A stretch of 64,000 nt of DNA from Dictyostelium discoideum (lineage: Eukaryota). The position numbers and the translations under genes are program-made. The DNA lies in assembly GCA_000004695.1 (NCBI GenBank), contig CM000154.2, positions 1-64,000 of the forward strand, in the 5' to 3' direction. The notes beneath the pieces were generated by a model. The model did not search any database, was not told the DNA's origin, and saw only the letters and a program-made list of their open reading frames with translations. The first letter of the stretch is position 1, and the number at the start of each line of letters is the position of its first letter. Shown here piece after piece: positions 16,590 through 20,537 of this stretch.

Positions 16590-16975
16590 AAAAAAAAAAA
16601 AAAAAAAATTTAATTTAAATTTTTAAAGTTGACGATAATAAAGAACAAAACCCAATTCAATTAAAATTTTATTTTTATATGGGTGTGTTTATGTGGTTAT
16701 ATATTTAATTTTTTGGATTTACATTGTGCGAAATTTAAATAAAATGAATAGAAAAAATAAACAAAAATAATAAAAATAAAAATAAATAAAAAAAATTAAA
16801 CAAAACAAAACAAAAAAAAACAAAAATTAATAAAATAAAATAAAAAAAAAAAATTAATAAAATAAAATAAAAAAAAAAAATAAATAAAATAAAATATATT
16901 TTTACTACTTGAATAATATTTATAAAAAATAAAATATAAATCATTTTATTTGAGAGGTTATTATAATTTACTTAC

Positions 16976-17304
16976 ATCTTTTGTTTTTTAGTTCTTTTTG
17001 ATGATTTTTGTTGTTCTTCTTCTATTTGTTTTTGTAATGCCGCTGCTTGGGATCGAGTTTTTGGTGGTGAAATTGGAGTTGTTGTTGGAGTTGTTGTTGG
17101 AGTTGTTGTTGGAGTTGTTGTTGGAGTAGTTGTTGGTGTAGTGGTTGGTGTAGTGGTTGTTGATGTAGTGTTCCCACTACCTTTTTTTGGTTGTTGATTG
17201 ATTATTGACTCTTTATTAATTTCGTTTTCCTTATTTATTGTGGTTGTTGCCGTTGTATTTGATTTGGGAGTTGGTGTTTTACGCTTTTTATTACCAGTAG
17301 ACAT
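16976..17304 (-). CDS. Basic Lys/Thr-rich exon (MSTGNKKRKTPTPKS...TTTP x7...KRTKKQK). Proposed to be the 5' exon of the HECT ligase gene, spliced over a 774-nt intron (16975..16202); otherwise a separate 110-aa gene.
   Basis: The ORF ends in AAG AT|GTAAGT, a canonical donor leaving 2 nt. Acceptor aataaatag at 16203-16202 supplies 1 nt and lands exactly in the HECT frame, which is open from 16201 to the ATG at 15933. Human TRIP12 has a similar basic Ser-rich disordered N-terminus. Confidence 0.4.
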
Positions 17305-17865
17305 ATAACAAAGTATATGTAATTAAACTATTGTTTAAAATAAATTGTGAAATAGTGAAAAAAATTCTCTCTAAATTATTATTTAATTTAATTGCTGCTA
17401 CTGCTGCTGCTGCTGCTAAATTTAATGTTTAAAATATAAAAAATGAAAAAAAAAATATATTTTTTTAATAATGTTGGTTTTTAGTTTTATTTGTTTTCTG
17501 TTGTTGGTTATTTTATGAAAATGAGAGAGTGGGGTTGATAAATAATAAGAAAAAAAAAAAAAAAAAATTAATTTTTTTTTTTTCAAATTATTTTTTTTTT
17601 TTTTTTTTTATTTTAATTTTTTTTTTTTTTTTTGATTTTTTTAATTTATTTTTATACATATATATATAAATCGTTATGAATATATTAAAAAAATAAAAAA
17701 AAATAAAAAAAATAAAATAAATAAATTTTTAGGGTTTAAAAAAGACGAAGTAAATAAAAAAAAAAAAAAATAAAATAAAATAAAAAAAAATTTTATGATA
17801 ATAAAAAAAATAAATAAATAAAATATTAAATAATTATTACAGTTGTTTAAAAAAGAAGAAAGATA

Positions 17866-17896
<31 letters not shown>

Positions 17897-17926
17897 CTAT
17901 TATAATAAAAAAATTTATTTAATCTA

Positions 17927-18320
17927 TAGTTTTTTAATTATTATTATTATTATTATTATAATAGCTCTTTAATATACATTTCTCTTTTTTTAGTAATCTC
18001 TTTTAATTTTTTAAATTTTTCTTATTTTCATAAATACCATTTTTGGTATTTTTTCTTTTCCAAAAATTTGGATAATATTTTTACTATTATTGTTTTTATT
18101 AATTTTACCTAAACCTAATTTATTATTCTTTTTTTCAACTTTTATTGGATTAATTTTACTTTGATTATCCTTACCTAAACCTTCACCATCGGACCAATTC
18201 ATTTTTTTAGTAATAATTTTATAATCAACATTCAAAGGTAATCAAGATGATATAAATCTTTTTAAAACAGAACCTTCTTTAGTTCTTTCACATAAAATTA
18301 GAGTTGTTGATTATTGACGT
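17927..18320 (-). pseudogene. Truncated, degenerate duplicate of the 3' part (G-patch region) of the gene at 19093..19836.
   Basis: 17941-18320 is about 95% identical to 19076-19480, including the preceding (ATT)n. The copy keeps the MNWSDGEGLGKDNQSKINPIKVEKKNNKLGLG ORF (18011..18235) but has stops and divergence upstream. Confidence 0.6.
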
Positions 18321-18780
18321 TCAATTTTCTATACAAATAACCATAATAAAAATTAGTGAGGGTAATTTTTTATTTATCACCAGATTTTTTTTTTTTTTTC
18401 GCACACACAAAAATAAAGTCCAAAGAATAAGGTTGACTTTTTTGCCAACAAGATGAAATGGAATGGATTTAAATTGATATAATATGCGCATATTATTTTT
18501 TTTTTTTTATAAAAAATAAGAAACATTGGATGGATTTTATGTACATATATTGTTTTTTTATTTAAATTACAATTCTAGAAACAATTTTTGTTTTTTTATT
18601 TTTCTTTCTACATGTTGTTGAATAGTGGAATTTAAAGGAGTTTTGCTAAAAAATAATTCATTCTTTTGTGGTTGAATTACATTTATGTCGTCTTGGGATA
18701 ATTGATTAATTTGATCCAAATCTTGTAAATTGATATTGGATATATTTAATTTATATGAAGTTGGATTTCTTTTGTGATTT

Positions 18781-18801
18781 ATTATTATTATTATTATTAT
18801 T

Positions 18802-18892
<91 letters not shown>
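18781..18892. repeat. Intergenic (ATT)n microsatellite, about 36 units, between the duplicated segments.
   Basis: Direct reading. Confidence 0.9.
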
Positions 18893-19092
18893 GACACTAC
18901 TATTATTCATATTAATCTTCTTGGTTGGGTGCTCGTAATTAAAAAAATAAAAAAAATAAAAAATTCCTATAATAAAAAAATAAATAAAAAATTACTATAA
19001 TAAAAAAAAATTATTTAAAATTTATTATTATTTTTTATTATTTTAATTTTTTATTATTTTTTTTTTTATTGGTATTATTATTATTATTATTA

Positions 19093-19836
19093 TTATAATA
19101 GCTCTTTAATATACATTTCTCTTTTTTTAGTAATCTCTTTTAATTTTTTTAAATTTTTCTTATTTTCATAAATACCATTTTTGGTATTTTTTTCTTTTCC
19201 AAAAATTTGGATCTTATTTTTACTATTATTATTATTATTATAATTAATTTTACCTAAACCTAATTTATTATTCTTTTTTTCAACTTTTATTGGATTAATT
19301 TTACCTTGATTATCTTTACCTAAACCTTCACCATCGGACCAATTCATTTTTTTAGTAATAATTTTATAACCAACATTCAAAGGTAATGAAGATGATATAA
19401 ATCTTTTTGAAACAAAACCCTCTTTAGTTCTTTCACATAAAATATGAGTTGTTGATGATTGATGTTCAATTTTCTCTGTATTAAAAATTTCACTTTCACA
19501 TTGATCACAATAAAATGATTTTACTTTTGTTATATTGGTTGTTGTTGTTGTTGTTGTTATTATTTTTCCAGTAGTTCTTGATAATTCTTCACCAGAACCA
19601 ATATTATTATCAATTAATAATGGTTGTTGTTTTGATATTTCTGGTAATCTTTTAAATAATCTTTCTGGTAACTTTGTATTTAATGAAGAGGTTGAAGTTT
19701 TATAGAAATTTGAAATATTGAAACCTTCTTCTTCTTCTTTTTCTTTTTTTAATTTATCAATATCAATATTGTTATCAAAATTATTTTCAAATAAATCTTC
19801 ATTGGTTATGTAACCTCCTGATATAAATCTTTTCAT
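19093..19836 (-). CDS. G-patch domain protein with a matrin/U1-type C2H2 zinc finger.
   Basis: 247-aa ORF. Finger FYCDQCESEIFNTEKIEHQSSTTH (C-x2-C-x12-H-x5-H). G-patch motif KMNWSDGEGLGKDNQGKINPIKVEKKNNKLGLG. Confidence 0.7.
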   Translation of the reverse strand: MKRFISGGYITNEDLFENNFDNNIDIDKLKKEKEEEEGFNISNFYKTSTSSLNTKLPERLFKRLPEISKQQPLLIDNNIGSGEELSRTTGKIITTTTTTTNITKVKSFYCDQCESEIFNTEKIEHQSSTTHILCERTKEGFVSKRFISSSLPLNVGYKIITKKMNWSDGEGLGKDNQGKINPIKVEKKNNKLGLGKINYNNNNNSKNKIQIFGKEKNTKNGIYENKKNLKKLKEITKKREMYIKELL

Positions 19837-20108
19837 CTTTTTTTAGTTGAAAAGTAAGAATTATTTTGCCATACATAAAGATTTCGACGATGGGTGGTAT
19901 ATTATATTTTTTTTTTTTTTTTTACAATTGTAAGTTTGTTAATTTTTTTTTTTTTTTCTATTGTTTTTTTTTGAAATTTAATGAGGGAAGGGCGATATTT
20001 TTTTTATTTTTTTTTTTGTAAAAACGAAGGACGCTTATGTGGCTTTTTACACAAATTATTTTAAATTTGTCAAAATACCGAGTGTTTTTTGGGAATATTA
20101 AATTAAAT

Positions 20109-20148
<40 letters not shown>

Positions 20149-20537
20149 AAAAAAATGAAAAAAATAAAAAAAAATAAAATTAAACAAAAAAAAACGTTCA
20201 GATGAAATTTCATAAATGTTTTATTGTTTTTTATATTTTATTTTTAAAAAATCAATTTTAAACACAAAACAGAACATTAAATACCAGCTTTCTATGAGAC
20301 ATCCACATAATTCACCAATTCTAAAAAAAGATGATATCAATGGAGATTTGGATATATAAAAAAAAAAAAAAAATGAATAAAAAAAAAAAATTTTTAAAAA
20401 AAAAAATAGAAAATAAATAGTATTTCCATTTTTACATTTTTTTTCTTAAATAAATCAAAAAAAAAAAAAAAAAAAACCAATCAAAATTCACACAACACAT
20501 GATGAAATAGTAGAAATTTAGTATGAATTTAAATATA

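Follow-up and report, generated by a model that had tools for sequence, protein, structure and literature searches.

A truncated, probably decaying duplicate at the 3' end of a G-patch gene in Dictyostelium discoideum

G-patch proteins (PF01585), for example SUGP1, TFIP11/Spp382 and NKRF, are cofactors of DEAH-box helicases. Duplication beside a parent gene has been described at the tgrBC locus, where full and partial duplicates diverge as likely pseudogenes and vary among close strains (PMC12745789). On another scale, AX4 chromosome 2 carries a large segmental duplication that originated in the laboratory lineage (PMC12745789).

We analysed a window of 64 kb from chromosome 5 of D. discoideum AX4 in which the end of a G-patch gene, DDB_G0287251, occurs twice, once within the intact gene (copy B) and once downstream of it (copy A). 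The locus was compared with four other assemblies of the discoideum complex (L001, L002, L006 and L007) and with two outgroups, D. firmibasis (L004) and D. dimigraforme (L005). Copy A is, in our judgement, probably a non-processed, 5'-truncated duplicate that holds the last 127 codons of DDB_G0287251 and the start of its 3' flank.

The G-patch gene and its partial copy

DDB_G0287251 (Q54KN9) occupies 19093..19836 on the minus strand in the ORF listing and encodes 247 aa; an exact-sequence look-up identified the product as XP_637318.1 of D. discoideum AX4. The protein carries a CX2CX11HX5H finger (C110, C113, H125, H131) upstream of a G-patch at aa 154-195, which scores above the Pfam threshold (PF01585, E 1.4e-9, 38.1 bits, cut-off 22) and whose PDB matches are the G-patch regions of SUGP1, TFIP11, NKRF and Spp382. 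Orthologues are present in four other Dictyostelium assemblies. Downstream of the duplication, the first exon of a neighbouring gene of about 2,000-2,100 aa (an ORF at 16972..17304, minus strand) provides a syntenic anchor, and this neighbour is colinear in L001, L002 and L004-L007 according to the gene tables.

When the region was searched against the entire window by blastn, with dust filtering active, one non-self match emerged. It pairs copy A (17937..18330) with copy B (19074..19475), both on the minus strand, as direct repeats offset by about 1.1 kb (402 alignment columns, 94.5% identity, E 2e-177); the 64 kb hold no further copy. With the low-complexity filter off the search yielded AT-rich noise only. 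The base-by-base alignment contains 14 substitutions and 8 gap columns (one gap of 6 bp and two of 1 bp). The match extends over non-repetitive sequence containing G and C, such as GGTCCGATGGTGAAGGTTTAGGT, and the similarity is therefore not an effect of low complexity. The initial annotation had reported a local duplication affecting the 3' portion of the G-patch/zinc-finger gene, at 17941-18320 and 19076-19480 with about 95% identity, and the search and alignment bear it out with slightly shifted edges. Since the same duplicate is found at the same place, in synteny, in independent long-read assemblies of related strains, an artefact of the AX4 assembly was ruled out.

Copy B begins at the second base of codon 121, takes in the stop codon and closes with an (AAT)7 tract beyond it. 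Both copies end in this tract, read as (ATT)7 on the forward strand at 17937-17959 for copy A (TRF) and at 19074-19096 for copy B (read from the sequence; TRF reports the latter run only as part of a longer impure array at 19022-19096).

Distribution, decay and coding potential of copy A

Copy A was found in every discoideum-complex lineage examined, at the same place in each, and is absent from D. firmibasis and D. dimigraforme, in each of which the duplicated segment matches once. In AX4, L002 and L006 it adjoins unique sequence on its 5' side at an identical breakpoint (...TTATTATGGTTAT.TGTAT/AGAAAATTGAAC, the slash marking the breakpoint), while L001 and L007 keep 5'-deleted remnants at the orthologous position. 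Flanking genes differ by 2.4-3.3% among AX4, L001/L002 and L006, whose branching is a trichotomy by this measure, by 4.6-6.7% from L007 and by 10-16% from the outgroups; a duplication common to lineages at these distances predates their splits. The comparison shows a single origin of the duplication, in the common ancestor of the D. discoideum complex and after the split from D. dimigraforme and D. firmibasis, a bracket that is coarse, drawn from five assemblies of the complex and two outgroups. The adjacent gene of ~674 aa, used as a protein query toward the loci of D. citrinum and D. intermedium, gave no match, perhaps because of low complexity. Copy A, called recent in the initial annotation, is old, being present in all these lineages.

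The 5' breakpoint of copy A is sharp and falls inside codon 121, which means that neither the gene start nor the finger's Cys pair was ever part of the copy. It had been proposed that the finger and the start were lost through stops and divergence; the breakpoint, the same in the three lineages that keep the 5' end, contradicts this. The His pair alone of the finger was copied, and it was mutated afterwards (H125R, H131L). In the parental frame copy A reads stop-KIERQ-stop-STTLILCERTKEGSVLKRFISS-stop-LPLNVDYKIITKKMNWSDGEGLG..., with two premature stops, at codons 127 and 151, and it also carries the 6-bp deletion and the two 1-bp deletions.

By substitutions, lineages differ from one another at 3.2-5.0% in copy A, at 0.5-1.8% in the corresponding segment of the functional gene, and at 2.4-6.8% in the non-coding DNA next to copy A. 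Five substitutions are common to all A copies and nine are specific to that of AX4, where seven of the nine are non-synonymous (two of them nonsense) and two synonymous. Other lesions are found in the other lineages: in L002 a +1 insertion together with a 3-bp deletion and a missing 3' end; loss of the first ~100 bp in L001; 1-bp deletions in L006; and loss of the first ~185 bp, the G-patch core included, in L007. The lesions of the lineages are independent of one another. Conversion between copies A and B in AX4, considered because there are no substitutions in the last ~130 bases, is not needed, and a clade of L002 and L006 would account equally well for two B-like sites of the AX4 copy A. 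Copy A thus combines homology to a parent with disabling lesions and with evolution relaxed relative to that parent, as in duplicated pseudogenes, and the proposal that one copy is decaying stands, with in-frame stops, frameshifts and divergence at the intergenic rate. The reading that we consider probable is that of an ordinary duplicated pseudogene, decaying neutrally at a structurally unstable locus.

Copy A is annotated in AX4 as a protein-coding gene, DDB_G0287223 (Q54KP0, XP_637317.1 by exact look-up), an ATG-started ORF of 63 aa at 18011..18202 on the minus strand in which the G-patch core is followed by a frameshifted tail. As first noticed in the initial annotation, the G-patch reading frame is kept: the enclosing ORF at 18011-18235 (minus strand) matches PF01585 with E 7.9e-9 and 35.7 bits, above the cut-off of 22. 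A core of about 33 codons is open from an internal Met in four of the five lineages (AX4, L001, L002 and L006), and in L006 the frame continues to the original stop. Such features would be expected of a functional G-patch-only micro-protein arisen by domain capture, for instance a decoy or a free-standing activator of DEAH-box helicases. On the sequence evidence we find this improbable. Copy A evolves at the rate of its intergenic surroundings; across the A copies the core has four non-synonymous and two synonymous changes, with D to N, E to G and D to H at conserved sites in L006; and the C-terminal tail varies through independent frameshifts. The core is wholly deleted in L007, and at 3-5% divergence an open frame of about 100 bp is expected by chance. 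The gene model DDB_G0287223 is most likely the annotation of a relic, and DDB_G0287223 itself is very probably a pseudogene fragment of DDB_G0287251. A full-text literature search found no mention of either gene.

The DNA between the copies and the edges of the unit

Copies A and B lie 743 bp apart in AX4 and 2.4-2.5 kb apart in L002 and L006, and the DNA between them is missing from the outgroups. Directly 5' of copy A, unique sequence at 18331..18578 (minus strand) is colinear by blastn with L002 12927-13187 and L006 9048-9304; its orthologue in the other lineages is the interval that separates an orphan gene from copy A, and its substitution divergence between lineages is 2.4-5.9%. The orphan gene itself is intact in the wild lineages, with orthologous proteins of 237-264 aa. 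In AX4 we located a relic of its exon 1, 54 codons at 18582..18743 (minus strand), by tblastn with aa 1-54 of the orphan protein P0008 (92.6% identity, the sole match in the window). The start codon has become ATA in AX4 (18741-18743), and junction alignments place at about 18579 a deletion of about 978 bp that corresponds to the remainder of the gene. The arrangement had been described as tandem, which does not readily fit a spacer that is the remnant of another gene; the 110-bp microsatellite reported between the copies is present, as (ATT)37.7 at 18779..18892 (TRF; (AAT)n on the gene strand), but it shares the spacer with this remnant.

A third partial copy of the gene end, copy C, is found in L001, L002 and L006. 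The event that produced it comprises an insert of ~690 bp and a repeat extending from 163 nt into the duplicated segment (CDS nt 524) to 45 bp past the stop. Loss of copy C from AX4 by recombination between B and C was considered and rejected; the most divergent lineage, L007, is also without it, so that AX4 probably never had copy C. The sharing of copy C also suggests that L002 and L006 form a clade.

We considered whether the DNA between the copies could be a mobile or otherwise inserted element that made a target-site duplication of 0.4-0.5 kb, a second such event giving copy C. The two events are alike in architecture (target 3' end, insert, target 3' end again), the insert in the event that gave copy A would be about 1.6-2.4 kb, and the C-event insert shares a palindromic motif, TAATATGCGCATATT, with the segment that precedes copy A on its 5' side. 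Against this, homologues of the orphan protein are found at this locus only, one per assembly, and the 10 kb to each side revealed neither a transposase nor terminal repeats nor any additional copy. Dictyostelium elements are not known to make target duplications of hundreds of bases, and we hold an insertion of this kind to be hardly probable.

The edges of the duplicated unit were examined against the other lineages. On the far side of copy A, 17305..17936 (minus strand) is the ancestral 3' intergenic flank toward the next gene: D. dimigraforme L005 10322-11148 is colinear with the window from 18328 down to 17469, that is with copy A and its downstream flank, while D. dimigraforme homology to copy B ends at the end of the gene. 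Beyond copy B, an AT-rich 3' flank of the parent, ending TAATTACGAGCACCCAACCAAGAAG, leads into the upstream region of the orphan gene (18925..19073, minus strand; comparison with L002, L006 and L007) and may contain a degraded duplicated flank. In AX4 the similarity of the flanks past (AAT)7 is marginal (local alignment, z 3.2, with 1 of 300 dinucleotide shuffles reaching the score), and the L007 flank comparisons past the microsatellite are overall not significant in a shuffle test. The only convincingly shared stretch is in L007, where the parent flank after (AAT)n matches the copy A flank at 31 of 33 bases, which places the microsatellite inside the duplicated unit and not at its boundary. 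The (ATT)n run that had been assigned to the distal edge does end the aligned part of both copies, but it lies within the unit. Of the outgroups, D. dimigraforme has just a short (TAA)n at the 3' end of the unit, and D. firmibasis lacks one.

The initial annotation had explained the locus as a recent microsatellite-mediated tandem duplication, which would have occurred in the AX4 lineage by exchange or slippage between (ATT)n tracts, with decay just begun. The (ATT)7 that ends both copies, the 110-bp (ATT)n between them and the high identity of A and B are what such an event would leave. The long tract sits just upstream of the orphan-gene relic, about 450 bp from copy A, and its orthologue has 3-4 units in L002, L006 and L007; it is an expansion specific to AX4 and therefore younger than the duplication. 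Moreover, copy A, with its breakpoint wherever the 5' end survives, is common to lineages as distant as L007, its 5' junction adjoins unique sequence, and the microsatellite is internal to the unit. Around the 5' breakpoint the parent reads AATACAG/AGAAAATTG and is microsatellite-free, so repeat tracts do not stand at both ends of the unit; nor is the junction made of repeat. We consider this origin very unlikely. A 5'-truncated processed retrocopy of the G-patch mRNA can practically be dismissed, since copy A, although truncated at the 5' side and reaching the gene 3' end like LINE-mediated retrocopies, runs on directly into the ancestral downstream flank, which is the outgroup arrangement, and hence stands in the original 3'-end position, has no poly(A) tail, and lies about 0.7 kb from its parent in direct orientation.

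Proposed history and comparison with known systems

In the present layout copy B retains the ancestral 5' half of the gene and the downstream copy A the ancestral 3' flank, with extra DNA between them. Such an arrangement is the signature of a direct duplication in place, some 0.4-0.5 kb long, that has foreign DNA close to or at its junction. As to the order of events, the segment could first have been duplicated in simple tandem, the DNA bearing the orphan gene entering afterwards, or a single repair or replication event could have duplicated the segment and captured filler DNA. Copy A, without the parental start codon and with half a zinc finger, has drifted at the intergenic rate. Later, in the AX4 lineage, erosion of the locus went on: the ATG of the orphan gene disappeared along with about 1 kb of the gene, and a short (AAT)3-4 tract upstream of it grew to 110 bp.

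A bolder reading, which we think unlikely, is that the 3' end of the G-patch gene is a recurrent hotspot of rearrangement, with partial copies of the gene end (A and C) formed at least twice around new DNA, one lineage with a relocated truncated copy, and an orphan gene delivered or born there and lost in the laboratory strain, or alternatively that the G-patch-only ORF is an expressed micro-protein acting on DEAH-box helicases. Under the duplicated-pseudogene reading, the value of the locus is mainly one of annotation and housekeeping, with no bearing on open questions. DDB_G0287223 is best left out of any tally of independent G-patch genes, and AX4, being without an orphan gene that is intact in wild relatives, falls short of the complete gene complement of the species. 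The locus also offers a compact, datable case in which part of a gene was duplicated and decayed, within a genome of extreme AT richness.

Compared with described systems, copy A resembles non-processed pseudogenes in being a truncated local copy with stops and frameshifts that evolves at about the neutral rate beside a constrained parent; unlike them, it is annotated as protein-coding, and a second, lineage-specific gene, destroyed in AX4, lies between the copies. As in G-patch proteins, the domain passes the Pfam threshold both in the parent and in the ORF of copy A, the link to helicases being here one of sequence similarity; unlike in those proteins, the parent has a CX2CX11HX5H finger upstream, with no specific member assigned as its orthologue, and copy A is a core with a scrambled tail. 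With the tgrBC locus it shares a partial duplicate beside the parent that diverges as a likely pseudogene, and differences between strains (PMC12745789), but the present locus is small, comprises a single gene and gives no sign of diversifying selection or of fragments recombining into the parent. Finally, the duplication on AX4 chromosome 2 is, like copy A, direct and present in the reference strain, whereas copy A is 0.4 kb long, ancient and common to wild relatives.

The duplicated segment in AX4

The parent of the duplication is a minus-strand open reading frame (19093-19836) of 247 aa, identical by exact look-up to XP_637318.1 (Q54KN9), "hypothetical protein DDB_G0287251" of D. discoideum AX4. 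Residues 154-195 form a G-patch (Pfam, E 1.4e-9), and the only solved-structure matches of the protein are the G-patch regions of SUGP1, TFIP11, NKRF and Spp382. Upstream of the G-patch there is a CX2CX11HX5H motif (C110, C113, H125, H131) that is kept in the orthologues. The window has a G+C content of 22.8%, and an assembly gap of 100 N (1-100) opens it.

We compared 17800-20300 with the whole window by blastn with low-complexity filtering on. The sole non-self match was between 17937-18330 (copy A, minus strand) and 19074-19475 (copy B, the duplicated segment of the parent). The two are 94.5% identical across 402 aligned columns (E 2e-177) and differ by 14 substitutions, a gap of 6 bp and two gaps of 1 bp. 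The initial annotation, which had placed the duplication at 17941-18320 and 19076-19480 with about 95% identity, was therefore correct to a few bases, and the similarity, above 80% identity, passes through ordinary coding sequence rather than low-complexity sequence alone. As it also described, both copies end in an (ATT)n run, here (ATT)7 in each (copy A at 17937-17959, by TRF; copy B at 19074-19096, read from the sequence), and a tract of about 110 bp lies between them (18779-18892, (ATT)37.7 by TRF).

The duplicated segment runs from the second base of codon 121 through the stop codon of the parent, and the breakpoint falls after the finger's Cys pair but before its His pair. In the comparison of the copies, no common sequence was found upstream of this breakpoint. 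Since the segment begins inside codon 121, the duplication never included the beginning of the gene or the leading half of its finger; neither was lost by decay, as first proposed. In the parental frame copy A reads stop-KIERQ-stop-STTLILCERTKEGSVLKRFISS-stop-LPLNVDYKIITKKMNWSDGEGLGKDNQSK...KIRKI-stop, with changes at two zinc ligands (H125R and H131L), two premature stops, G155D and a tail scrambled by two 1-bp deletions. A 63-aa ATG-started frame within it (18011-18202) is the annotated AX4 gene DDB_G0287223 (Q54KP0).

Age and polarity of the duplication

Syntenic loci were gathered by protein searches and exact look-ups from two other assemblies labelled "D. discoideum" (L001 and L002, locus-tag prefixes ACTFIR and ACTFIW), two labelled "D. 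cf. discoideum" (L006, ACTFIY; L007, ACTFIZ), a second site in the ACTFIZ assembly (L003), and the outgroups D. firmibasis (L004) and D. dimigraforme (L005; prefix n/a for both). PRJNA1300491 is the most probable source of the new assemblies; the paper that describes it, PMC12745789, covers two wild isolates of D. discoideum (CR116C and OT3A), D. dimigraformum AR5b, and M4B and S6B as possible cryptic species. The loci have a common gene order: GMC oxidoreductase, thioredoxin, a 650-780-aa gene, the G-patch gene and a gene of ~2,000-2,100 aa. In the large gene next door, exon 1 (16972-17304, minus strand) carries a 12-bp tandem repeat encoding (TTTP)n, whose unit number varies between assemblies. 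In flanking genes the p-distance is about 1% between L001 and L002, 2.4-3.3% from AX4 to L001/L002 and to L006 (a trichotomy), 4.6-6.7% from L007 to the other complex lineages, and 10-16% from the complex to the two outgroup species.

Each outgroup has one copy of the duplicated segment and merely about 600-720 bp from the G-patch gene to the next gene. In D. dimigraforme, one colinear alignment spans window positions 18328 down to 17469, comprising copy A and its downstream flank, and homology to copy B stops where the gene ends. Copy A has therefore kept the ancestral 3' surroundings of the gene and copy B the ancestral 5' surroundings, and additional DNA separates the two. All five discoideum-complex lineages carry copy A: its 5' junction is identical in AX4, L002 and L006 (...TTATTATGGTTAT.TGTAT/AGAAAATTGAAC), and 5'-deleted remnants occupy the orthologous position in L001 and L007. 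Thus the duplication, which had been called recent, predates the radiation of the complex. Among the five complex lineages and two outgroup species compared, it is younger than the divergence from D. firmibasis and D. dimigraforme. Over 351 shared columns, all A copies have five substitutions in common and AX4 copy A has nine of its own, with the parent nearly unchanged, which makes the duplication roughly half as old again as the AX4/L002/L006 split.

Boundaries, spacer and later rearrangements

The duplication had also been attributed to microsatellites. Its high-identity core stops at (AAT)7, and in AX4 the flank similarity past this point is merely marginal. In L007, 31 of the 33 bases past the parent microsatellite agree with the sequence flanking copy A (TAAAAAA.TA.TAGATTAAATAAAATTTTTTTATT), which places the microsatellite within the duplicated unit. 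The 5' junction of copy A is in unique sequence. As for the 110-bp (AAT)n between the copies (~38 units in AX4), the orthologous tract in the other lineages has 3-4 units (for example CAATAATAATAATAAATCA in L007), so it expanded in the AX4 lineage, later than the duplication. Nothing in these comparisons supported an exchange between microsatellites. The layout (5' gene part, copy B, foreign DNA, copy A, ancestral flank) is consistent with direct duplication of a short segment and entry of DNA at its junction or close by, in one step or two.

The spacer is more than a microsatellite. An intact three-exon orphan gene of 237-264 aa (MSNINLQDLDQINQLSQDD...) lies between the copies in three wild assemblies, L002 (11781-12699), L006 (8001-8881) and L007 (8001-9366); its homologues occur at this locus only and are well conserved among lineages. 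AX4 is without this gene that its relatives carry: directly downstream of the (AAT)n tract it retains the first 54 codons (18743 down to 18582, minus strand; 92.6% identity, the only match in the window), with the ATG start changed to ATA and about 978 bp deleted at about 18579, at AAATTGTT/AAATTTTTT microhomology. A separate, lineage-specific deletion in L001 fuses copy A to the orphan gene's final exon, and accounts for the chimeric 281-aa gene model ACTFIR_001025 (P0005; L001 10001-11535).

A second event, alike in form to that of copy A, is seen as a third partial copy of the 3' end of the G-patch gene (copy C) in L001 (9628-9725), L002 (11345-11587) and L006 (7554-7792). Copy C starts 163 nt inside the duplicated segment (CDS nt 524), ends 45 bp beyond the stop and has an insert of ~690 bp in front of it. 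It is absent from AX4 and L007, which probably never carried it. A motif that includes the palindrome ATATGCGCATAT is found both 5' of copy A (window 18481-18505) and in the insert ahead of copy C (L006 7010-7034; L001 about 9120; L002 about 10830), and these two segments also have a ~50-bp sequence (TTTAGATAGTAATATATAAATCACAAATG...) in common in L001 and L002. Such sharing hints at template switching within the locus or at a small repetitive element. The syntenic G-patch gene of the ACTFIZ assembly (L007 7426-8101) is internally deleted and degenerate, and another contig (L003 10001-10604) holds a 198-aa copy of the gene, truncated in its poly-Asn (AAT)n tract, at a distance of about 1.9 kb, or two genes, from a DDE_Tnp_4 transposase gene. 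It looks as if the gene was relocated by duplication and the original was lost afterwards.

Decay of copy A

Substitution-only divergence between lineages is 3.2-5.0% in copy A, 2.4-5.9% in the unique spacer adjoining it, 5.0-6.8% in the intergenic flank downstream and 0.5-1.8% in the equivalent segment of the functional gene. Seven of the nine AX4-specific changes are non-synonymous (two of them nonsense) and two synonymous. The lesions differ lineage by lineage: L002 has a +1 insertion ahead of the internal Met, a 3-bp deletion and the last ~70 bp gone; L001 has lost the first ~100 bp; L006 carries 1-bp deletions, and three conserved residues of its G-patch are replaced; and L007 lacks the first ~185 bp, G-patch core included. 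The open frame from the internal Met is kept in four of the five lineages, and survival of a ~100-bp frame at this level of divergence is expected by chance. The pattern of substitutions and lesions indicates that copy A evolves as non-functional DNA, drifting like its non-coding surroundings; the earlier reading as a pseudogene fragment is supported, more strongly than the current annotation is. On this evidence copy A is very probably a duplicated pseudogene of the ordinary kind, in an intergenic locus that is structurally unstable, and in practice DDB_G0287223 should be treated as a relic.
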